From the IMG/VR virus record IMGVR_UViG_3300029133_000019, positions 1-40,932 of that record: a stretch of 40,932 nt of DNA, one strand, 5' to 3'. Source of the stretch: a virus. Position numbers and translations under genes: made by a program. Position 1 is the stretch's first letter; each line of letters begins with the position of its first letter. The notes below the pieces were generated by a model, which was not told the DNA's origin, ran no database searches, and saw nothing but the letters and a program-made list of their open reading frames with translations. Positions 6,481 through 40,932 of this stretch are shown in pieces.

Positions 6481-6554
6481 TGCGGCATAGCCAAAAGGTA
6501 AGGCACATGGTTCTGACCCATGTAATGGAAGTTCGATTCTTTCTGCCGCAACCA
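6481..6554 (+). tRNA. tRNA-Gln (anticodon CTG)
   Basis: Folded by hand. Acceptor stem TGCGGCA/TGCCGCA with a U1-A72 pair. D arm GCC-AAAAGGTAA-GGC, close to E. coli tRNA-Gln. Anticodon arm CATGG-TTCTGAC-CCATG. Variable region TAAT. T arm GGAAG-TTCGATT-CTTTC. Discriminator A and an encoded CCA. Confidence 0.9.
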
Positions 6555-23867: not shown

Positions 23868-24478
23868 CGGTAAAGCAAATCCAATGCCTGTTGACTTACC
23901 TTGGCTATTCTCCCGGCACGATTGACGGCATTGAGGGCAGGAACACCCAAGGAGCTGTCCGAGCGTTTCAGGCCGGCTATGGACTTACCGTGGACGGGAT
24001 TCCGGGGGCGGCTACCCAGAAAATGCTGATTGGTGCTATCGCCGGGACGGCGGTAAAGGTGGAAAAGCCGGAGGACAGCACCGCGCCGACGACCGGGACT
24101 TTCTGGGACGATATCAAGTATTTCACCCGGGAGGAATTCCGGTGCCAGTGCGGCGGGAAATACTGCAATGGATTCCCCGCAGAACCCGCAGAGGAAACCG
24201 TCCGCATGGCGGATGAGATACGCCGCCGGGCTGGGGTTCCCCTGAATGTGAATTCCGGTGTGCGGTGCAAGCGGCACAATGCCGAGGTAGGCGGGGTATC
24301 CAACTCCCTGCACACCACGGGGCAGGCTGTAGACCTCTCAGGGGCTATCTCCCCGGAGAAGCTGTATGCCATAGCGCAGGAGGTACAGGCTGAGAAAATC
24401 CCCGAGCGGGGCGGCCTGGGGCTGTACGGATGGGGCATTCACGAGGACAACGGGAAATACAGCCGGTGGAACGGCTGA
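23864..24478 (+). CDS. Endolysin: PG_binding_1 domain plus Peptidase_M15 (zinc D-Ala-D-Ala carboxypeptidase-like) domain
   Basis: The N-terminus LLTYLGYSPGTIDGIEGRNTQGAVRAFQAGYGLTVDGIPG is a peptidoglycan-binding motif. The C-terminus SGVRCKRHNAEVGGVSNSLHTTGQAVD carries the M15 H/D metal-ligand pattern. Confidence 0.85.
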   Translation: MTVKQIQCLLTYLGYSPGTIDGIEGRNTQGAVRAFQAGYGLTVDGIPGAATQKMLIGAIAGTAVKVEKPEDSTAPTTGTFWDDIKYFTREEFRCQCGGKYCNGFPAEPAEETVRMADEIRRRAGVPLNVNSGVRCKRHNAEVGGVSNSLHTTGQAVDLSGAISPEKLYAIAQEVQAEKIPERGGLGLYGWGIHEDNGKYSRWNG

Positions 24479-24493
24479 GAAGGGAGTATGCCA

Positions 24494-24793
24494 ATGGAAG
24501 AAACGGAAATCGCTGGGCGGCTTTCTGCGGTAGAACAGCGGAGCAAATCCAACTCCCACCGTCTGGACGCGCTGGAGAAGCATACGGAAGCGCTGAACAC
24601 GCTGGCAACGTCTGTTGCTGTCATGGCGGAGAAGGTGGAGGTCACCGGGGAGAAGGTTGACGGCCTCTGCACGGACGTGCAGGAGCTGAAATCCGAACCC
24701 GGCAAGCGGTGGAAGTCGGTGGTAGAAAGGGTCATATACATCGTCGTAGCCGCTGTAGTAGGGTTTATTCTTGCCCGGCTTGGGCTGGGCTAA
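24494..24793 (+). CDS. XhlA-like lysis-associated membrane protein
   Basis: An N-terminal coiled coil (RLSAVEQRSKSNSHRLDALE) is combined with a single C-terminal TM helix (VIYIVVAAVVGFILARLGL). Confidence 0.5.
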   Translation: MEETEIAGRLSAVEQRSKSNSHRLDALEKHTEALNTLATSVAVMAEKVEVTGEKVDGLCTDVQELKSEPGKRWKSVVERVIYIVVAAVVGFILARLGLG

Positions 24794-24814
24794 ATTTAAG
24801 GAGGAAAACAAAAA

Positions 24815-25087
24815 ATGATTGTCACAGGAATGGATCACTTTCAGAGCGTGTGCAAGCGAAAGCTCGTGGAGCATTACAATGCCACAACGGGAGAATCCAC
24901 GCAAATCGACCTCAGCAATGTATTTGTAGTTTGGGCGTGCAAGACGTTGCAGAACTACAAAGCGTTGCTTTCGACTACCGTTTCCGGTGATGGTGTGTAT
25001 GTGGAATACACATACAACGGAGACAAGCAGGAACTCTACGAGGACTTCTACATCAAATCCACAAATCGGAAAATTGTGGAAGAATAA
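24815..25087 (+). CDS. Hypothetical protein in the lysis module
   Basis: A 90-aa ORF with AAGGAGGAAAACAAAAA upstream. No recognised motif. Confidence 0.45.
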   Translation: MIVTGMDHFQSVCKRKLVEHYNATTGESTQIDLSNVFVVWACKTLQNYKALLSTTVSGDGVYVEYTYNGDKQELYEDFYIKSTNRKIVEE

Positions 25088-25101
25088 GGAGGAAAACAAA
25101 A

Positions 25102-25359
25102 ATGATTAACTGGATTGTACGTATCAAGAACAAAAACTTCTGGCTGGCCGCGATTCCCGCGCTGCTTCTGCTGGTGCAGACGGTAGCCGCCCTGTTCGGC
25201 TTTACGCTGGACTTGGGCGAAATTGGCGACAAGCTGCTGGCCGTGGTGAACGCCGTGTTTGCTCTGCTGGTGATCCTGGGCGTGGTCAATGATCCTACCA
25301 CCGCCGGTATCGCTGACAGCAAACTGGCAAGAACTTACAGTTCCCCCAAGGAGGACTGA
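25102..25359 (+). CDS. Holin (phi-LC3 / Phage_holin_1-like)
   Basis: MINWIVRIKNKNFWLAAIPALLLLVQ...VVNDPTTAGIADS matches the remembered holin family pattern. Two TM helices are present. Confidence 0.7.
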   Translation: MINWIVRIKNKNFWLAAIPALLLLVQTVAALFGFTLDLGEIGDKLLAVVNAVFALLVILGVVNDPTTAGIADSKLARTYSSPKED

Positions 25360-25367
25360 TGTGATAA

Positions 25368-25604
25368 GTGGATAAAGTCCCGTGGAATCGGGTGATTCTG
25401 GATGAGTTCTGTTCTCTGGCGATTCTCACGCCGTTGGAGGAAAAGATCATCCGCACCCGAGCCGCCGGATGGAGCCGTGTACAGCAGTGCCACGCTTACG
25501 GCATGTCCCTTGCCACATTAGATAGGTACATTAGGAAGTTGAAAAACTCCTATAGCAGTGTGCAGGAGTATAGCTACATACTCCCCAAAAACATAGACTT
25601 CTGA
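25368..25604 (+). CDS. Small sigma-region-4/LuxR-like HTH protein
   Basis: GTG start. The segment LTPLEEKIIRTRAAGWSRVQQCHAYGMSLATLDRYIRKLK resembles a sigma-70 region 4 HTH. Confidence 0.45.
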   Translation: MDKVPWNRVILDEFCSLAILTPLEEKIIRTRAAGWSRVQQCHAYGMSLATLDRYIRKLKNSYSSVQEYSYILPKNIDF

Positions 25605-25630
25605 TAGCTTTTTGAAGGATATGCGATTGT

Positions 25631-25671
25631 AAGTCGGTAGGGAAACGAGAGTTTCCCTACCGACTTTTTTG
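25631..25671 (+). terminator. Strong Rho-independent terminator ending the late/lysis operon
   Basis: A 16-bp perfect stem AAGTCGGTAGGGAAAC/GTTTCCCTACCGACTT with loop GAGA is followed by TTTTG. Confidence 0.85.
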
Positions 25672-25702
25672 TTATTCTATAGGCAGGAAGGGGGCGTTGC
25701 CT

Positions 25703-26083
25703 ATGGCTGAATTTCAAAGCTTTAATCCAAATCCCCGCGCCGCGAAAGTCGGCGATTGCGCAGTTAGAGCTGTGGCAAAGGCTCTGGGAATTGACTGGTA
25801 TCAATCATACGTTGAGCTGGCCAGCGAGGGGCTGACTCAATGCGATATGCCTAGCGCAAATAACGTATGGGGCGCGGTGTTACGGCGGCACGGATTCAGG
25901 CGGGCGGCAATCCCGGCGGAATGCCCGGATTGCTACACCGTAGGCGATTTTATCCGGGAATACCCTGACGGGATCTACGTTGTCGCGCTGAAAAACCACG
26001 TTGTTGCCGTGGAAAACGGCGTTTTGTACGATACTTGGAACTCAATGGACGAAAATCCTATCTATTTTTGGAGGCGTGAATGA
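25703..26083 (+). CDS. Accessory gene 1: small Cys/His/Asp protein (papain/transglutaminase-like arrangement, unassigned)
   Basis: A GGAAGGGGG RBS is present. The residues GDC19AVRA...NH99VVAV...YD110TW give a C...H...D spacing compatible with a thiol hydrolase/transferase fold. Confidence 0.5.
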   Translation: MAEFQSFNPNPRAAKVGDCAVRAVAKALGIDWYQSYVELASEGLTQCDMPSANNVWGAVLRRHGFRRAAIPAECPDCYTVGDFIREYPDGIYVVALKNHVVAVENGVLYDTWNSMDENPIYFWRRE

Positions 26084-26502
26084 TGGCAAATCCTTATATG
26101 CAGCCCAACTACCAATCCGGCTATTTTCAGCCAAACTATTTCCAGCCGCAAATGCCAATCGGGCAACCGCAGATGCCCGCACAACCCCAACAGCCGCCCC
26201 TTGATGACCGAATTTGGGTAGCTTCGGAATCTGCGGCGGAGGCGTTTATTGTCACGGCAAACGGATTCGTGCGGCTCTGGGACAGCAACAAGCCTGTATT
26301 CTACGAAAAGCGGACAGACGCGCAAGGGCGACCAATGCCGATTGTAGCGTATGAATACAAAATCCGGGACGCAGGAGCTACCCCGGAGGCAGTCAGCGCA
26401 GGATTTGAGCAGCGGCTTTCCGCTGTAGAGGAACGGCTGAACCAGCTGACGGAGGGAAAACGCGATGCCAAGAAAGCGGAGGTAAAACGCAATGATGCCT
26501 AA
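26080..26502 (+). CDS. Accessory gene 2: P/Q/Y-rich N-terminus, beta-rich core, coiled-coil tail
   Basis: An ATGA overlap joins it to gene 1 and a GGAGG RBS is present. The N-terminus reads MMANPYMQPNYQSGYFQPNYFQPQMPIGQPQMPAQPQQPP. Confidence 0.55.
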   Translation: MMANPYMQPNYQSGYFQPNYFQPQMPIGQPQMPAQPQQPPLDDRIWVASESAAEAFIVTANGFVRLWDSNKPVFYEKRTDAQGRPMPIVAYEYKIRDAGATPEAVSAGFEQRLSAVEERLNQLTEGKRDAKKAEVKRNDA

Positions 26503-26704
26503 TCCTATGCAGATGATTTCCCATTTTCCCCAATTTATGCAGCAGATGAGGGGGCAAGACCCGCAGCAATTGCTTAATCAGCTTGTACAGAGCGGGCGCG
26601 TAAACCAGCAGCAGCTTAACCAAGCCCAACAAATGGCACAGCAGATGCAGGGGCAGTTTGAGCAATTCCGGGGCATGTTCGGCTTCGGAGCGCCTAGAAG
26701 GTAA
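26492..26704 (+). CDS. Accessory gene 3: 70-aa Gln-rich protein
   Basis: A GGAGGT RBS is present. About 30% of residues are Gln (QQLLNQLVQSGRVNQQQLNQAQQMAQQMQGQFEQF). Confidence 0.55.
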   Translation: MMPNPMQMISHFPQFMQQMRGQDPQQLLNQLVQSGRVNQQQLNQAQQMAQQMQGQFEQFRGMFGFGAPRR

Positions 26705-26724
26705 ACAATAATCTGGCCAGATTT

Positions 26725-26733
26725 TGTTATATT
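26725..26733 (+). promoter_or_regulatory. Possible internal extended -10 element (TGTTATATT)
   Basis: The match is TGnTATATT within the 54-nt gap before accessory gene 4. The -35 is weak. Confidence 0.25.
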
Positions 26734-26758
26734 TTTCATCTTTTGAAAGGAGAACAAA

Positions 26759-27553
26759 ATGAGTATTACAGCAAGCGAAATGACCCCCGCTGATATCAGA
26801 GCTGTCACCGATGGCAACAACGGCGGCTATGGCGGAGGCTGGGGCGGTGATTGGTCTGCATGGATCATCATTTTCCTGATCTTTGGCTTCTTTGGCTGGG
26901 GCGGCAACGGCTGGGGCGGAGGCTTTGGCGGCCGTGGTTCCGGCGCTGGCGTGGTGGACGGGTATGTTCTCGCGTCCGATTTTTCCAACATCGAGCGGAA
27001 AATTGACAGCGTGAACAACGGCGTTTGCGACGGCTTCTATGCCATGAATACCGGTATGCTCAATGGGTTTGCAGGCGTGAACCAGAATATCAGCAACGGT
27101 TTCCAGGCAGCGGAGCTTTCCCGGTGCAATCAGCAGGCTGCCTTGATGCAGCAGCTTTTCCAGATGCAGATGGCAAATCAGGAGTGCTGCTGCGAAAACC
27201 GCGCCGCTATCCAGGGCGTAAATTACAACATGGCTACCCAGAGCTGCGACACCCGGAACACCATCCAGAACACCACCCGTGATATCATCGACGCTATGAA
27301 CTGCGGTTTCCGCTCCATTGACCAGCGCTTGACTGCCCAGGAGCTGGCGGCGAAAGATCAGAAAATCGCCGATCAGAATCAGCAACTCTTTATGGCGCAG
27401 CTGGCCGCTTCCCAGAATGCCCAGAATCTCACGATCAAGGGCTATGTGGAGAACCAGTTCGCGTACTACAATCCCCGCCCGGTTCCCGCTTATCAGGTGC
27501 AGAATCCCAACTGCTGCTACGGTAACGGCTACGGCTGCGGGAGTGTAGCGTAA
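26759..27553 (+). CDS. Accessory gene 4: Gly/Trp-rich single-pass membrane protein with Q/N-rich, Cys-rich domain
   Basis: An AAGGAG RBS is present. The N-terminal region reads GGYGGGWGGDWSAWIIIFLIFGFFGWGGNGWGGGFGG. It continues with CDGFYAMNTGMLNGF...ECCCENR...NPNCCYGNGYGCGSVA. Confidence 0.6.
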   Translation: MSITASEMTPADIRAVTDGNNGGYGGGWGGDWSAWIIIFLIFGFFGWGGNGWGGGFGGRGSGAGVVDGYVLASDFSNIERKIDSVNNGVCDGFYAMNTGMLNGFAGVNQNISNGFQAAELSRCNQQAALMQQLFQMQMANQECCCENRAAIQGVNYNMATQSCDTRNTIQNTTRDIIDAMNCGFRSIDQRLTAQELAAKDQKIADQNQQLFMAQLAASQNAQNLTIKGYVENQFAYYNPRPVPAYQVQNPNCCYGNGYGCGSVA

Positions 27554-27565
27554 GGAGGGACTAGC

Positions 27566-28000
27566 ATGGCGGTTGAACTTACTGCGAACGCTGTCCAGGC
27601 GGTGCCCGCCGGGCAAAACGTGCTGTTTACCGATACGCCGGTGAAATGCGGGCGGGGGTATGTTGTTCACCGTGAAGGCGCTGGGCTGGTGACACTTCGG
27701 GGCATTTGCAATGGATGTTCCCCAATCGCGCGGTATCGCGTGCTTTTCGTGGGAAACATCTCCGTGCCTACCGGCGGAACCGCTGGGGCTATCAGCGTAG
27801 CGCTGGCGCTGGGCGGTGAAGCGCTTCCCACCACTACGGCGACGGCAACCCCCGCCGCCGTGGGAGATGCATTCAACGTGGCGACTTCCGCGTTTGTGGA
27901 TGTTCCCCGTGGGTGCTGCGTAGCGTTATCCGTGCGCAATGTCTCCACGCAGGCAATCGATGTTGCCAACGCCAATCTAATGATTGAGCGCGTGGCCTAG
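27566..28000 (+). CDS. Accessory gene 5: BclA C-terminal-domain-like (TNF/C1q-like jelly-roll) protein without collagen repeats
   Basis: An AAGGAGGG RBS is present. The beta-strand pattern and the ending NANLMIERVA resemble the B. anthracis BclA C-terminus ...ASIIIEKVA. The central VALALGGEALPTTTAT compares with IQVNGVPVPGTGSS. Confidence 0.55.
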   Translation: MAVELTANAVQAVPAGQNVLFTDTPVKCGRGYVVHREGAGLVTLRGICNGCSPIARYRVLFVGNISVPTGGTAGAISVALALGGEALPTTTATATPAAVGDAFNVATSAFVDVPRGCCVALSVRNVSTQAIDVANANLMIERVA

Positions 28001-28011
28001 GAGGTGAAATT

Positions 28012-28395
28012 ATGAAGCACTGGGAACAGTTGAGAGATACACTTTGCCGGGAACTGGACGAAATCGCCGAAAAAGGCGAACTGTCCGCCGGTGATCTGGA
28101 AACCGTGGACAAGCTGACGCACACCATGAAGAATCTGGATAAGATTATGATGGGTGAAGGATACAGCAGTGCCGGGGACTGGTACGCCATGGGCAACTAT
28201 GGACGGGATGGCTATAGAGCCGATTATCGCGACGGCGTGAGCTATCGAGGCCGTAAACGCGATAGCATGGGGCGCTACAGCCGCGCAGACGCCAAGGAAG
28301 ATATGGTGGATAAGCTGCGGCGCATGATTGATGAAGCGCCGGACAGCCGGACGCGAGAGGCTCTGGAAAAGGCCGTCCGTTGTATGGAGGATTAA
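28012..28395 (+). CDS. Accessory gene 6: helical protein with R/D/Y/G-rich linker
   Basis: An AGGAGGTGA RBS is present. The sequence reads ELDEIAEKGELSAGDLETVDKLTHTMKNLDKI...GRDGYRADYRDGVSYRGRKRDSMGRYSR. I have seen this as a recurrent Clostridia hypothetical family but cannot name it. Confidence 0.5.
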   Translation: MKHWEQLRDTLCRELDEIAEKGELSAGDLETVDKLTHTMKNLDKIMMGEGYSSAGDWYAMGNYGRDGYRADYRDGVSYRGRKRDSMGRYSRADAKEDMVDKLRRMIDEAPDSRTREALEKAVRCMED

Positions 28396-28398
28396 AAA

Positions 28399-28731
28399 AT
28401 GTTAGCGGAGCGGGATTTGCTGGAAACAATCGAAGAATGTAAAGCAGTGAAGCGCCCGACAGCGGCGACATGCCAGCTGATGGCCTCATGCTATACAATT
28501 CTAGATCATATGTTTCCGGAACATTCCCGCTCTGCTGATATTTCCCCCGTAAGCCTGTATTCCGCTGCTCCTGCACCGCAGAGTGATGAAATATCCGGGA
28601 GCGAGTTTGCAATTGCCGCAAATTCAGCGGGAATGAAACGGCTATTAGAAGTGATGGACGAACACATGGAGTGCATTCGGCTTATGTACCCCAAGGAATA
28701 CGCGGCGATTATGCGGCGGCTCAGAGAATGA
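28399..28731 (+). CDS. Accessory gene 7: helical hypothetical protein
   Basis: A GGAGGA RBS is present. The start lies 3 nt after the stop of gene 6. Confidence 0.5.
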   Translation: MLAERDLLETIEECKAVKRPTAATCQLMASCYTILDHMFPEHSRSADISPVSLYSAAPAPQSDEISGSEFAIAANSAGMKRLLEVMDEHMECIRLMYPKEYAAIMRRLRE

Positions 28732-28869
28732 GCGGCAAAATTCCGTTGCCAATCCGTTTCCAATTTGCACCATAAAAACGTACCGAACGCGGGAAAATAT
28801 TAAAATCTGCGGTAATATTTTCACGTAGAATAGTTCGAAGAACGTGGGAATATAGCTGATAAAGCAATA

Positions 28870-28903
28870 AAAAAGCCCTAGAATAAGTTTCTAGGGCTTT
28901 TTC
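28870..28903. terminator. Bidirectional Rho-independent terminator
   Basis: A 10-bp stem AGCCCTAGAA/TTCTAGGGCT is flanked by an AAAAA run on the 5' side and a TTTT run on the 3' side. It sits between the accessory operon (+) and int (-). Confidence 0.75.
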
Positions 28904-28907
28904 TGCA

Positions 28908-28935
28908 TGGTGACCCGTACGGGAATCGAACCCAG
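28908..28935 (-). other. attP core: 3' fragment of a tRNA gene (T-loop, acceptor 3' strand, CCA)
   Basis: The reverse complement reads CTGGGTTCGATTCCCGTACGGGTCACCA, giving T-loop TTCGATT, acceptor ACGGGTC, discriminator A and CCA. No 5' half of a tRNA is present. The site lies 39 nt downstream of the int stop codon. Confidence 0.65.
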
Positions 28936-28973
28936 CGCATTATTTCTTAAACATGTTGCGGCTCTAATGAATT

Positions 28974-30065
28974 CTATTTTTCGTTTCCAATTTTGTTGCC
29001 AATTTTACCGTTCGCCGATGGGCTGGACGAGAAAAAGTTCCGAAAGTCCTGCGCTCTTTTGGCAATATCCTTCTGCGCTAAGTGCGTGTAAATTTTGTGC
29101 ATCGTCCCGTCATCTGCCCAGCCGCCGATTTCCATAGCTATCTTTTCCGGGATTTGGAGATGGTAAGCCAGAGATGCGAAGCTGTGCCGCAATCCGTGAT
29201 TTCCAACTTTTGGTAATCCATTTGCCGAACAGATTTCGTTTATCCTCGTCCCCACCCAGCCGCCGGTCAGGTTGACAACATATCCCTCTCTGTGATCAAC
29301 CAGTTTCAACGCCTCCATCAGCGGCTCGATGATTGGCACGACGCGCCGGGAAGAATCGTTTTTGTTCTGCTTCTTGTGAACCAGTTTGCCGCCGTCTCCG
29401 GCCACTCTTGCCCCGCGAACGTATATGATCTCGTTTTCGAGGTCAACGTTGTCCCACGTCAGCGCAAGCATTTCAGACCGGCGCAAACTGGACAGTTCCA
29501 GCAGAGCGGCTATTTCTATCGGTTCGCCCTTTATGGCGTTTACAAACACCGGTATCTGGTCTGGGTCGAGGAACGGCTTTTCGTTGTATTCCTTTTCCGG
29601 CAGGGTCACCCGCGGCCTGCGTCCGGTTTCCTCGAATATCGCCGCGGAAATCAGCATCCACACATTTTTGATGTATTTCGGGGACAGTGATTTTGCTTCC
29701 CTGCGGATGGCGGCTTGCCACTGTTCGTCCGTGGTGGTGTACACGTCAGCCACCATCATGCTTTGGAAGCGCTGCTTGCGGTAGGATTCATACGCATAAA
29801 TCGTTGACGGCGACTTGAACCCCTTCCGGGCGGCTATATATTTATCAAGCGTGTCCCCCAGCGTCTTCCCCCGCTTACCGGGCGCGGCCTTCGCTTCGAT
29901 AACGCCGTTTTTCAAGGCGAGATATTCGGCCACGCATTCATCGTATGTGTCTTTTGTAATTGATACGCGGCGATCCTCTATCAATACACGTGTGTGCCAC
30001 GCCCCTGATGGGAGCTGCTTAATTTTTGGGAGCCTGATTTCCGGCTCCTTTTTTCTTTTCGCCAT
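28974..30065 (-). CDS. int: Tyrosine recombinase / phage integrase
   Basis: Catalytic-region motifs are LRRSEMLALTW, HGLRHSFASL and the terminal ...MHKIYTHL (R..H-x-x-R..Y). The start is at MAKRKKEP, after GGAGGTG. Confidence 0.9.
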   Translation of the reverse strand: MAKRKKEPEIRLPKIKQLPSGAWHTRVLIEDRRVSITKDTYDECVAEYLALKNGVIEAKAAPGKRGKTLGDTLDKYIAARKGFKSPSTIYAYESYRKQRFQSMMVADVYTTTDEQWQAAIRREAKSLSPKYIKNVWMLISAAIFEETGRRPRVTLPEKEYNEKPFLDPDQIPVFVNAIKGEPIEIAALLELSSLRRSEMLALTWDNVDLENEIIYVRGARVAGDGGKLVHKKQNKNDSSRRVVPIIEPLMEALKLVDHREGYVVNLTGGWVGTRINEICSANGLPKVGNHGLRHSFASLAYHLQIPEKIAMEIGGWADDGTMHKIYTHLAQKDIAKRAQDFRNFFSSSPSANGKIGNKIGNEK

Positions 30066-30738
30066 CCCGTTCACCTCCACTTAAAAGCTTGTGGAAAATC
30101 AAAAATGCCGTGAGCATAAAAACAGCGGCGATTCCTGCCGCGCCAAATAAAATCACCGCAGAAATCTTTTCGGAGCGAATCAGCCCCATTTCCGTGTTCC
30201 GGGCATCCAGCACCATATAGATTATGAGTACCGCCGCCAGCAGAATGTTTAATGCGCACTGCCCGTAAATCAAGGGCTTATCTTCCCTTTGCGCGGATGC
30301 AAGCGCACTGTCTTTTTCTGAAAGGGCGTCGCTTTGCTTGCGGATTCTGGTATCCCGGGCAGATATTCCCGCCTCCTGAATCCGGCTCCGATCAAGGAGG
30401 CGGGATATTGCGGCGTCCTTTTCTTGCAACATTTCGTCTTTGTGATCGAGTTCAAGCTGCAAAAAATCCACGGTAACGGAATCGCCGCTTTTCTGCGGGG
30501 AAAGCCCGATAAGCTCGTCTGCGGATAATTCCAGGCTTGCGCATAGAGCGCACACATCCATGAAGCCCGGGTTCATCAGCGTACCGGCAAAGAAACGGTT
30601 TAGGGTCGTTCGCGGTATCCCGGTCTCGTCGGCCAGCTGCTGAACGGTTTTGCCTTGCTGCTGCTTGGCGGCCTTGATTTTTTCCACCAACGTCAGGCTT
30701 TGCTCATGCAGCGCCAAAATACGTTCCTCCGTGGGCAA
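30019..30738 (-). CDS. Membrane-tethered XRE-family HTH protein (HTH, coiled coil, two TM helices)
   Basis: TTG start lies 7 nt after AAGGAG. The HTH reads KTVQQLADETGIPRTTLNRFFAG. TM segments are LIYGQCALNILLAAVLIIYMVL and AVILFGAAGIAAVFMLTAFLIF. The 3' end overlaps the int start by 47 nt. Confidence 0.6.
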   Translation of the reverse strand: MPTEERILALHEQSLTLVEKIKAAKQQQGKTVQQLADETGIPRTTLNRFFAGTLMNPGFMDVCALCASLELSADELIGLSPQKSGDSVTVDFLQLELDHKDEMLQEKDAAISRLLDRSRIQEAGISARDTRIRKQSDALSEKDSALASAQREDKPLIYGQCALNILLAAVLIIYMVLDARNTEMGLIRSEKISAVILFGAAGIAAVFMLTAFLIFHKLLSGGERDGEKKKGAGNQAPKN

Positions 30739-30878
30739 AATAACTCGCTCCTTTCATTTTGGCACGCAAAATCTACGCCGTGTAAACGGATTGTCCGATT
30801 TGCGCGTTTACTTTTATAGTGGTAGGGACTATGGTAAAGGTGCAACCGGCAAGGGACGCACGGCGTTACCGGCGGCAA

Positions 30879-30910
30879 GCCCCGCCACCTTGTGGCACGG
30901 GTGGCGGGGC
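30879..30910 (-). terminator. GC-rich hairpin just downstream of the zinc-ribbon membrane gene (terminator-like, no U tract)
   Basis: An 11-bp stem GCCCCGCCACC/GGTGGCGGGGC. Confidence 0.35.
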
Positions 30911-30920
30911 ATATCAGAAA

Positions 30921-31478
30921 TTAGTGAATTTTCTTATAGGTAACTTCCAGCCCTGTATTGGGATGATATTTCCACGTTACGGTTACATTCTTACTATTGT
31001 ATGTTTCGGTTTGCCTTCCATCGGATGCGGATGTTTCGTTCATCTGATTGAAAAGAGAATCAGGAAGCCCCAACAGCCCATTGATGGTAGGGATTGTAAC
31101 GTAGGCCTCGCGGCAATCAAGGCCAGAATCGTCATAGTTGTACGGATTTGTATCAACGCTCAAATAACTGCCATCCGCCCCTACTTCTGCCCATGTGGAA
31201 TCACATAGGGTATCGTATATCCACTTAAAATCAGGTTTAGTAGCTCGCTGAATGAATATGAACGCTACGACAAAAATTGCGACCATTGCAATAATTGCCG
31301 GAACAAAATAGCTTTTCTTCTTGGGTTCGGCTTTTTGCTTGGGTGGAGCGTTTAGATCAGCGCCGCAGTTATCACAAAATTTTTGATTTTCTCTTATGGC
31401 AGCGCCGCACGACGGGCATACCATTTGGGGGGTATTTTGTTCGCCTGATGTTTCGAGTTCATTTGTTAAATCTTCCAT
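30921..31478 (-). CDS. Zinc-ribbon membrane protein (N-terminal CxxC...CxxC, one TM helix, extracytoplasmic domain)
   Basis: The start at MEDLTNEL follows AGAGGT. The zinc ribbon reads CPSCGAAIRENQKFCDNCG. The TM helix reads FVPAIIAMVAIFVVAFIFI. Confidence 0.6.
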   Translation of the reverse strand: MEDLTNELETSGEQNTPQMVCPSCGAAIRENQKFCDNCGADLNAPPKQKAEPKKKSYFVPAIIAMVAIFVVAFIFIQRATKPDFKWIYDTLCDSTWAEVGADGSYLSVDTNPYNYDDSGLDCREAYVTIPTINGLLGLPDSLFNQMNETSASDGRQTETYNSKNVTVTWKYHPNTGLEVTYKKIH

Positions 31479-40397: not shown

Positions 40398-40932
40398 ATG
40401 AAAGGTTACAAAGGATTCAACCCCGGCTTGATCTGCAAGGATAAGCAGTACCAGGAAAATACCATCTTCGAGGAACCAGAGGCGAAAATCTGTGAAAAGG
40501 GAATGCACTTTTGCGAAAATCCTTTTGACGTGCTGGACTATTACGATTTGATTCGCTCTGATGGCACACCGAACGAGTTCACGGAAGTTGAAGCGCTGGA
40601 CGAGCCAAAGACGGATGATAAGAAAAAATTCTGCTCCCGAAAACTGAAAATCGGCGTAAAACTGGGACTATCCGGATTTATCAAGGCATGTGTGGATTTT
40701 GTACTGGAAAAGACTATTGCTGAGGCACCGAGTGAAAACGTTTATTCCAGGGACTCCGCCCGGATTGGCAGTTCCGGGGACTCCGCCCAGATTGGCAGTT
40801 CCGGGTACTACGCCCAGATTGGCAGTTCCGGGTACTCCGCCCGGATTGGCAGTTCCGGGTACTCCGCCCAGATTGGCAGTTCCGGGTACTCCGCCCAGAT
40901 TGGCAGTTCCGGGTACTCCGCCCGGATTGGCA
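40398..40932 (+). CDS. N-terminal part of a DUF7666-like tandem-repeat protein (runs off the right edge; continues at 1..407)
   Basis: ATG 40398 has no stop before the window end, so the ORF is absent from the track. Translation gives MKGYKGFNPGLICKDKQYQENTIFEEPEAKICEKGMHFCENPFDVLDYYDL... followed by DSARIGSSG-type repeats. Confidence 0.7.
   Translation, partial: MKGYKGFNPGLICKDKQYQENTIFEEPEAKICEKGMHFCENPFDVLDYYDLIRSDGTPNEFTEVEALDEPKTDDKKKFCSRKLKIGVKLGLSGFIKACVDFVLEKTIAEAPSENVYSRDSARIGSSGDSAQIGSSGYYAQIGSSGYSARIGSSGYSAQIGSSGYSAQIGSSGYSARIG
40752..40932 (+). repeat. 27-bp coding tandem repeat, right part (about 6.7 units)
   Basis: The unit is the same as at 1-176. The variants are gac/tac, cgg/cag and one tac-tac unit. 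Confidence 0.9.

Follow-up and report, generated by a model that had tools for sequence, protein, structure and literature searches.

The IMG/VR virus record IMGVR_UViG_3300029133_000019, analysed here over its whole length of 40,932 nucleotides and hereafter called the window, carries seven small, tightly packed genes, g1 to g7, between an intrinsic terminator and the phage attachment site (attP) beside an integrase gene (Table 1). The initial annotation had described these seven open reading frames (ORFs) with their overlaps and short gaps and a GGAGG-type ribosome-binding site (RBS) for each, and its coordinates were confirmed: g1 and g2 overlap by 4 nucleotides and g2 and g3 by 11, the subsequent gaps measure 54, 12, 11 and 3 nucleotides, and a GGAGG-like RBS lies 6-12 nucleotides 5' of each of the seven starts. 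Overlaps of this kind suggest that translation of the genes is coupled. For g1, translation could also begin at an in-frame TTG (25697). The same annotation had placed a terminator with a 16-bp stem before the genes and a bidirectional one after them; these two hairpins are the best terminator-like sites in a scan of positions 24000-31000, and the second closes both the cassette and the convergent integrase gene. We regard a 425-amino-acid antisense ORF across g3 to g5 (26393-27670, minus strand) as spurious, because it has no homology support and the genes opposite it are under strong purifying selection.

Table 1. Coordinates of the cassette, its regulator gene and its borders in the window
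Feature	Position	Strand	Remarks
Small sigma70-region-4-like helix-turn-helix protein, 78 aa	25368..25604	+	probable cassette regulator
Upstream intrinsic terminator	25631..25671	+	16-bp stem (25631-25666), 4-nt loop, T-run
Candidate weak extended -10, TGtTATTCT	25670..25678	+	directly 3' of the terminator; read from sequence
g1, predicted papain-like Cys-His-Asp protein, 126 aa	25703..26083	+	peptidase slot
g2, core component	26080..26502	+	P/Q/Y-rich N-terminus, ~60-aa folded domain, coiled coil, charged tail
g3, 70-aa Gln/Met-rich helical protein	26492..26704	+	g3/g3b slot
g4, signature single-pass membrane protein	26759..27553	+	Gly/Trp-flanked hydrophobic segment, Cys cluster
g5, predicted TNF/C1q-type jelly roll, 144 aa	27566..28000	+	AlphaFold2 model
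g6, helix, Tyr/Arg/Gly/Ser-rich low-complexity centre, helix	28012..28395	+	family alignment
g7, 110-aa helical acidic protein	28399..28731	+	least conserved cassette member
Bidirectional terminator	28869..28903	both	15-pair hairpin, T-runs on both strands
attP core, 3' end of host tRNA-Glu(UUC)	~28908..28934	-	alignment with integrated prophage L167
Integrase gene	28974..30080	-	convergent with the cassette

The seven genes form a real module, travelling together under purifying selection. We collected relatives by a back-translated search with g4 and then searched the ORFs of 163 loci iteratively with profiles. The g4 search returned at least 596 IMG/VR contigs and, in addition, 80 loci in species-representative genomes, with prophage copies in metagenome-assembled genomes of Oscillospiraceae, Lachnospiraceae, Acutalibacteraceae and Bacilli. 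Among the 163 loci, g4 is counted 163 times, g2 155, g5 118, g1 107, g6 103, g3 94 and g7 78 times. The exact order g1 to g7 recurs in 73 of them and partial versions are found in about 90 more; in about a dozen loci g1 has been shifted to the end of the cassette. Synteny is kept in more than 160 loci, down to 25-50% identity and with wholly different holin, endolysin and integrase genes on the flanks. Ratios of nonsynonymous to synonymous substitution rates (dN/dS) against relatives lie between 0.03 and 0.18 for all seven genes (0.08-0.18 for g7). The cassette thus recurs in other neighbourhoods as a syntenic unit, and the view of the initial annotation that this is a coherent set matching no described system stands, since our literature searches found no description of it.

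How the module varies is as informative as how it is conserved. Its core consists of g2 and g4, and the other positions behave as slots, which we followed through 165 loci. g3 is present in 95 loci and g3b, an unrelated-looking Met/Gln-rich protein of 75 amino acids, in 63; the two never occur together, and only 7 of the 165 loci have neither. Likewise, g5 (118 loci) and a Cys-rich, beta-rich protein, c13cys (30 loci), never occur together, nor do g1 (108 loci) and a SprT-like zinc peptidase (14 loci). A Tyr/Arg-rich slot is filled in 149 of the 165 loci by g6, g6b or a DUF7841-type Tyr/Arg/Asp-rich protein. Profile-profile comparison with hhalign related neither g5 to c13cys nor g3 to g3b; by this measure the members of each pair are positional analogues and not detectable homologues. 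Non-homologous, mutually exclusive replacement in fixed slots is what one would expect of a single multi-component machine, and the slot architecture speaks for a true machine of several proteins, not for a loose assortment of cargo genes. In general form the cassette reads: a helix-turn-helix (HTH) gene of sigma70-region-4-like type, usually a terminator, a facultative peptidase, g2, g3 or g3b, g4, g5 or c13cys, a Tyr/Arg-rich protein, a facultative g7 and, alternatively at this end, the facultative peptidase.

Two kinds of additional ORF were observed inside the cassette borders. An HNH-type homing endonuclease gene stands on the opposite strand between g3 and g4 in Dulem virus 33 (L001, 5046-5597) and in about seven IMG/VR loci; the 54-nucleotide gap between these genes tolerates the insertion of a selfish element. 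An ORF of about 50 amino acids, not found in the window, lies between terminator and g1 in Butyrivibrio virus Ceridwen (L170, 4870-5076) and in Dulem virus 33 (L001, 3843-3992), and the two copies share the pattern ..RL..G......A...Y..G....LE..

What do the proteins look like? Searches of all seven against Pfam, NCBIfam and PADLOC gave nothing above threshold, and their PHROG matches are all to families of unknown function; profile searches of the PDB sequences with g1, g2, g4, g6 and c13cys returned nothing usable. The statement of the initial annotation that none of them encodes a standard phage function is therefore upheld: no virion, lysis or replication annotation came out of the Pfam, NCBIfam, PADLOC and PHROG searches, and confident matches to ordinary phage functions were absent from those of Pfam, NCBIfam and PHROG. 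When 45 diverse members of the g2 and g4 families were compared with Pfam and NCBIfam, only scattered coiled-coil noise appeared; weak matches to the tail of ZorA in 7 of 45 g4 members are probably compositional. A hydrophobic segment is found in g4 only, and a signal peptide in none of the seven products.

The g1 product is predicted to be a minimal papain-like Cys-His-Asp protein and a putative peptidase. Residues N8, N10, D18, C19, R22, H99 and D110 are invariant in the family, the candidate triad Cys19/His99/Asp110, already singled out by the initial annotation, having been followed through sets of 29 and 66 diverse sequences. In the AlphaFold2 model (predicted local distance difference test, pLDDT, of 95), Cys19 sits at the N-terminus of a helix (19-28), and His99 and Asp110 lie on adjacent strands (99-104 and 107-110). 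This is the arrangement of the C39 and Josephin peptidases of clan CA type, in which the nucleophilic Cys begins a helix and His and Asp are on neighbouring beta-strands; the size of these domains and the spacing of the three residues are also similar. Unlike these domains, however, g1 has no Pfam match above threshold and its structural matches to them are weak: the best PDB structure found by Foldseek is Josephin-2 (E-value 0.047, template modelling (TM) score 0.45), and among predicted viral structures a C39-annotated model (8.9e-3) and a Josephin-annotated one (0.07) give E-values of the same modest kind. Its nearest relatives are uncharacterised phage proteins, with strong structural matches in Pseudomonas, Enterococcus, Sphingomonas, Acidovorax, Cellulophaga and other phages, and tblastn located g1 without the rest of the cassette in Geobacillus phage GBK2, in Tsamsa-like Bacillus phages and in the Lak phages of Prevotella.

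The initial annotation had counted a possible cross-linking enzyme and a Gln-rich matrix among the parts of the set, recalling GerQ and its cross-linking by Tgl. For g1, this part of the proposal is not supported. The resemblance to the GerQ/Tgl pair is one of composition only, namely a Gln-rich protein next to a Cys-His-Asp protein; unlike that pair, g3 matches no family, and Tgl is absent from the phmmer hits of g1, from its profile hits and from the 50 listed Foldseek matches in the PDB. The occurrence of g1 in many unrelated phages, including those of Gram-negative hosts, indicates a generalist phage enzyme family rather than a Tgl-like cross-linker. Moreover, g1 is optional and is replaced by a zinc peptidase in some variants of the cassette, so proteolysis fits better than transglutamination. 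A more specific reading, in which g1 would act like C39 peptidases on a double-glycine leader and cleave the N-terminus of g4, was rejected, because that N-terminus is not conserved and g1 is optional.

The signature protein of the module, g4, agrees with its first description as a Gly-rich single-pass membrane protein with a Cys-rich domain: it contains 13% Gly, a single Gly/Trp-flanked hydrophobic segment at about residues 33-50 and conserved Cys. Beyond the segment come a Q/N-rich helical (coiled-coil) region, a Cys cluster, and a Pro-rich and then Cys/Gly/Tyr-rich tail. Conserved motifs include GLCDGFYAMNT.MLNGF, an invariant CCC(E/D), TRDIID, AASQ..QN, PxPAY and a terminal CGC. The family comprises 1,421 clusters at 50% identity, all of about 200-300 amino acids and without domain fusions. 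In the homologues of three loci (L094, L132 and L150), a poly-Thr run takes the place of the Cys/Gly/Tyr-rich C-terminal tail. A likeness of the Gly-rich segment to YjcZ-like sporulation membrane peptides was considered and found no NCBIfam support.

For g5, the initial annotation of a jelly roll like those of BclA-C and C1q proved right at the level of fold. The AlphaFold2 model (pLDDT 91), in which the jelly roll begins at residue 2, is of TNF/C1q type and appears closest to BxpB/ExsFA and to the C-terminal domain (CTD) of BclA. The best Foldseek matches are 8d02 (BxpB), 9h38 (F-BclA CTD), 9h3d (ExsF) and 7r1m (ExsFA), with E-values of about 1e-7 and TM scores of 0.73-0.76, and the top 13 all belong to BxpB, F-BclA, ExsF or ExsFA (TM 0.68-0.76), ahead of eukaryotic TNF ligands. 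The g5 profile agrees with this, weakly: its six matches among PDB sequences are all to BclA or ExsFA (E-values 0.076-0.49). g5 thus has the same jelly-roll fold as these proteins (including 1wck) and, like ExsFA, is a stand-alone domain, of about 140-170 amino acids, without signal peptide. Its sequence similarity to BclA and ExsFA falls below significance, it has no match in Pfam or NCBIfam, and, unlike in these proteins, neither a collagen-like repeat region or other N-terminal attachment region (the fold fills all 144 residues from residue 2) nor a known BclA/ExsFA targeting motif is present.

The remaining members are of low complexity or helical. The Gln content of g3, first given as about 30%, is 28.6%; the protein matches no family, and it may recall the Met/Gln-rich domains of STI1 and ubiquilin. 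g2 has no Pfam or PDB relatives. Of the two proteins originally called helical, g7 is so, and g6 is not simply helical, since its centre is conserved and rich in Tyr, Arg and Gly, with Y51, Y63, Y78, G80 and Y89 near-invariant in the family alignment.

The HTH gene before the upstream terminator is a conserved eighth member of the cassette, which the initial annotation had missed. Its product contains the pattern LTPLEEKIIRTRAAGWS..MSLATLDRYIRKLK, resembling sigma70 region 4. Of 151 loci, 98 have a related or analogous HTH gene (median 81 amino acids) on the same strand no more than 400 nucleotides 5' of the cassette, and the number rises to 119 when the distance is extended to 1.5 kb. One class of these proteins matches Pfam Sigma70_r4_2 at 1.3e-9; the best match of the window protein itself is only HTH_29, with an E-value of 0.007. 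The upstream HTH protein is probably the regulator of the cassette.

What would it regulate? In 65 of 141 distinct loci the cassette is preceded, no more than 160 nucleotides before its first gene, by a strong hairpin with a T-run; many of these stems are unrelated in sequence. Directly after the terminator, near relatives carry TGTTATTAT where the window has TGtTATTCT. A clear extended -10 element of TGnTATAAT type is found in 8 of 83 non-redundant loci, in seven of the eight at -30 to -38 and in five directly after the terminator. Both an autonomous unit, made of terminator, promoter, genes and terminator, and attenuated read-through from the late operon are possible.

The genomic setting of the cassette is recurrent. 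In 60 non-redundant loci its upstream neighbours are lysis genes of unrelated families (M15, Amidase_2/3, GH25, NlpC/P60, C39_2, M23 and five holin families), and on the other side a tyrosine or serine recombinase gene lies no more than 4 kb 3' in 54 of the 99 loci with enough sequence, at a median distance of 265 nucleotides; many of the remaining loci are integrated prophages, in which bacterial DNA follows. The usual slot is therefore that between lysis genes and attP, and in integrated prophages the cassette stands at the attR end. The attP of the window is confirmed by a prophage on a bacterial contig of 182 kb (L167): the two sequences are identical as far as about 28934, beyond which L167 enters an entire tRNA-Glu(UUC) gene, which tells us that the window holds only the 3' end of this tRNA. 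A sister prophage, L169, keeps cassette and terminator and is integrated at tRNA-Ser. In both prophages the phage DNA ends, at attR, with the cassette, and the downstream terminator is conserved with it across prophages using different att sites. Near-identical cassettes and terminators are thus joined to different att cores, tRNA-Ser in L169 and tRNA-Glu in L167 and the window (28732-28934), which implies that integrase/att modules are swapped directly 3' of the terminator.

The proposal that this is an attP-proximal slot for lysogenic-conversion cargo therefore describes the usual position correctly, yet the cassette is not bound to it. Dulem virus 35 has the cassette between the minor- and major-capsid genes, and in Dulem virus 39 it lies 3' of a co-oriented integrase gene, among early genes; Ceridwen and a large phage contig (L164) are further exceptions. 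In bajarodcaudo virus 5 and in contigs of 63-138 kb encoding PolIII-alpha and NrdD, the cassette ends the late operon, opposite the replication genes. Two of these large contigs, L164 and L165 (63 and 138 kb), represent a phage with PolIII-alpha, NrdD/NrdG and dUTPase genes that carries g2-g3b-g4-g5-g6b-SprT; their called genes fail to translate under table 11, the ORFs coming out truncated, which suggests stop-codon recoding. In two related phages, AgrB-family genes (quorum-sensing peptide maturation) were seen no more than 2.6 kb 5' of the cassette.

The exception that weighs most in what follows is Ceridwen. Butyrivibrio, the genus of its host, is described as forming no spores. The phage (Butyrivibrio virus Ceridwen, MN882553.2), a siphovirus from the rumen that is in culture, carries g1 to g7 in order, with one insertion of 264 amino acids. 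Its cassette follows an endolysin gene, a small membrane protein, a 73-amino-acid HTH-like ORF and a predicted terminator, and all genes of the phage are on one strand. Only lytic growth has been observed, and its authors consider the phage probably virulent (PMC7372960). No recombinase or integrase was detected in it with the profiles built in this analysis. Seven intact genes in a phage seen in lytic growth only, on a host from a genus described as non-sporulating, argue that the module works in vegetative infected cells.

How does this compare with what phages are known to carry at this place? Moron cassettes between the lysin gene and attR are known from Sfi21-like phages and from the converting phages of S. 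pyogenes and S. aureus (Brussow/Canchaya reviews). Like these cassettes of temperate Firmicutes prophages, ours follows the lysis genes at the attR end, is bounded by terminators and is mobile between phage backbones. Unlike them, it is made up of seven to eight co-adapted genes where they have one or two, has among its products neither a toxin nor a known exclusion protein or defence system, and occurs also at other genome positions and in an integrase-less phage seen only in lytic growth; its own promoter is only a candidate. By position, then, the cassette belongs to a known class, the accessory cassettes of the lysin-att junction, and by content it has no described counterpart. Our literature searches, on exosporium, BclA and prophages, on phage sporulation genes, on lysogenic conversion in Oscillospiraceae and on Ceridwen, returned no description of it, and neither coat nor exosporium genes are mentioned in a paper devoted to the sporulation genes of gut phages.

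Ceridwen, seen growing only lytically, and the positions away from attP lead us to read the cassette as a mobile, host-directed accessory module and not as a spore-surface kit. We tentatively favour a horizontally mobile, self-contained module of moron type, carried by siphoviruses of gut and rumen Clostridia and Erysipelotrichales-like Bacilli, whose products would form a host-directed, membrane-anchored complex acting on the vegetative envelope. The products would assemble in the cytoplasm into one complex, which g4 would tether to the cell membrane; the coiled-coil stalk and Cys-rich tail of g4 would carry a presumably trimeric g5 cap, low-complexity g2, g3 and g6 could serve as scaffold or chaperones, and the occupant of the peptidase slot, g1 or the SprT-like protein, would process one of the components. 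The HTH protein would control transcription across the terminator or just 3' of it. The target of the complex may be the vegetative host cell, at a late stage of infection and perhaps also when expressed from the prophage, and the membrane or envelope would be altered to the advantage of the phage. Our best single guess at its purpose is that it keeps out rival phages or controls the envelope as infection ends.

Several points weigh against this proposal. g1 may not be mechanistically tied to the cassette, since it stands alone in other phages. The Pro-rich or poly-Thr tails of g4 could equally mean that its C-terminus is extracellular, the poly-Thr end perhaps being glycosylated. As for a self-contained unit, extended -10 elements show no overall enrichment above background in the 83 non-redundant loci, and k-mer enrichment 5' of the cassette yielded only the T-tracts of terminators and RBSs, with no conserved promoter. 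The contacts between the cassette proteins are ones that we infer. Finally, the products contain no effector-type domain (nuclease, NTPase or pore) and nothing significant in PADLOC, so that a role in exclusion or defence is a guess from position.

A bolder form of the same idea, which we hold to be doubtful, is that the phage builds a hitherto undescribed structure of the cell: a membrane-anchored layer or appendage of protein, composed of g4 as Cys-rich coiled-coil anchor, a cap with the TNF fold of exosporium proteins (g5 or its counterpart), prion-like scaffolds rich in Gln, Tyr and Arg, and a peptidase, under a switch resembling sigma region 4. Such a structure would carry the logic of an 'exosporium-like coat' over to vegetative cells or, in sporulating hosts, apply it to spores.

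Might the cassette instead assist lysis? Its place directly 3' of the holin and endolysin genes of many unrelated families, and in the same orientation, would suit a late accessory of lysis or egress expressed by read-through from the lysis operon, and in many loci an RBS follows the terminator by 4-40 nucleotides, leaving little room for a promoter. Retention in Ceridwen, seen in lytic growth only, is in keeping with this. g4 would then be a membrane-anchored coiled-coil factor that times or completes envelope disruption, by a spanin-like logic transposed to monoderm hosts: like the two-component spanins (Rz/Rz1) of phages of diderm hosts, it has an N-terminal membrane segment, a coiled coil, conserved Cys and lysis genes as neighbours. 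However, it shares no homology with spanins or holins and, unlike Rz/Rz1, has no lipoprotein partner, lives in monoderm hosts, is separated from the lysis genes by a terminator and comes with many extra components. Strong terminators stand between lysis genes and cassette in about half of the loci, the cassette follows an integrase gene in Dulem virus 39 and lies among head genes in Dulem virus 35, and seven to eight genes including a TNF-fold protein are unlike any known lysis accessory. We think this explanation rather unlikely.

The initial annotation had proposed a candidate envelope or spore-surface module whose logic recalls the exosporium. On this view the cassette would be conversion cargo assembled in the mother-cell cytoplasm, with g4 as anchor, g5 as trimeric knob, a matrix rich in Gln, Tyr and Cys, and g1 as cross-linking or maturation enzyme. 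In its favour, the nearest neighbours of g5, in structure and in sequence, are all exosporium proteins of Bacillus. The absence of signal peptides, partners rich in Cys, Tyr, Gln and Gly as coat and exosporium proteins are, a small HTH protein resembling the class of GerE and sigma region 4, the lysin-attR conversion slot, and hosts from Firmicutes classes that contain spore formers would all be in keeping. Yet g5 is the one product that resembles coat or exosporium proteins, no other matching such families: unlike in exosporium systems, its partners are unrelated to ExsY, CotY and CotE, and the host of at least one carrier phage is not known to sporulate. The enzyme is not Tgl-like and its family extends to phages of Gram-negative hosts; no CATA-type sporulation promoter motif emerged from the upstream k-mer enrichment; and the cassette also occurs away from attP. 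Above all, Ceridwen, a phage of B. fibrisolvens with no detected integrase and only lytic growth, carries the complete cassette with all seven genes intact. What keeps spore-surface cargo alive as an explanation is the fold of g5 together with the composition of its partners in amino acids, and nothing else; we consider it unlikely.

That the products are parts of the virion, as fibre tip, decoration or assembly chaperones, with g5 as a receptor-binding or decoration knob, seems to us very unlikely. TNF-like knobs are found in phage spikes and fibres, and the central spike knob of phi812 is among the Foldseek matches of g5, one homologue of which was named a collagen/carbohydrate-binding protein by its depositor; the cassette comes after the genes for tail and lysis, and that of Dulem virus 35 is inside the head module. 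Against this, a membrane segment is present in g4, a core protein; the lysis genes and a terminator precede the cassette; it passes between phages whose structural modules are unrelated, and it adjoins integrases; none of the PHROG matches is structural; and g5 lacks a collagen region and any other N-terminal means of attachment. That unrelated morons are strung together here by chance, for which one could cite the solitary g1 of other phages and the dispensability of g1 and g7 in many loci, is essentially excluded by the synteny data, that is, by gene order kept down to 25-50% identity in more than 160 loci with changing flanks, as well as by exclusive slot replacements, overlapping starts and uniform purifying selection.

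As to the phage around the cassette, the window is a complete siphovirus genome of 40,833 bp assembled as a circle, since bases 1-99 recur exactly at 40834-40932 and this terminal repeat is the overlap of a circular assembly. Upstream of the region, the gene order is tape measure, Dit, Tal, fibre genes, lysis genes, the 78-amino-acid HTH gene and the cassette. The lysis module comprises an M15 endolysin with a peptidoglycan-binding domain, XhlA-like and DUF6275 proteins and a Phage_holin_1 holin; the XhlA-like gene ('hemolysin' in PHROG) and the DUF6275 gene, at 24488-25087 between endolysin and holin, make it a four-gene module. A phage-borne tRNA-Gln gene (anticodon CTG) was noted at 6481-6554, among ORFs of the early region. 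Overlapping the 5' end of the integrase gene, positions 30019-30738 (minus strand) encode an XRE-type HTH protein of 239 amino acids with a hydrophobic C-terminal part, a membrane-tethered protein of repressor-like type; its homologues adjoin the integrase in 41 of 83 related loci.

The cassette is among the more widespread multi-gene modules of unknown function in the phages of gut and rumen Firmicutes. Its study also defines two protein families, a minimal papain-like fold distributed across phages, predicted from g1, and what the g5 models suggest to be a phage branch of the TNF-like fold of BclA and ExsFA. Since Ceridwen, which carries the cassette, and its host B. fibrisolvens DSM 3071 are both in culture, the question of its function is directly testable. 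Should the cassette change the envelope of abundant gut commensals, their susceptibility to phages or, with less likelihood, their spores, it would represent a common and so far unrecognised influence of phages on these bacteria.

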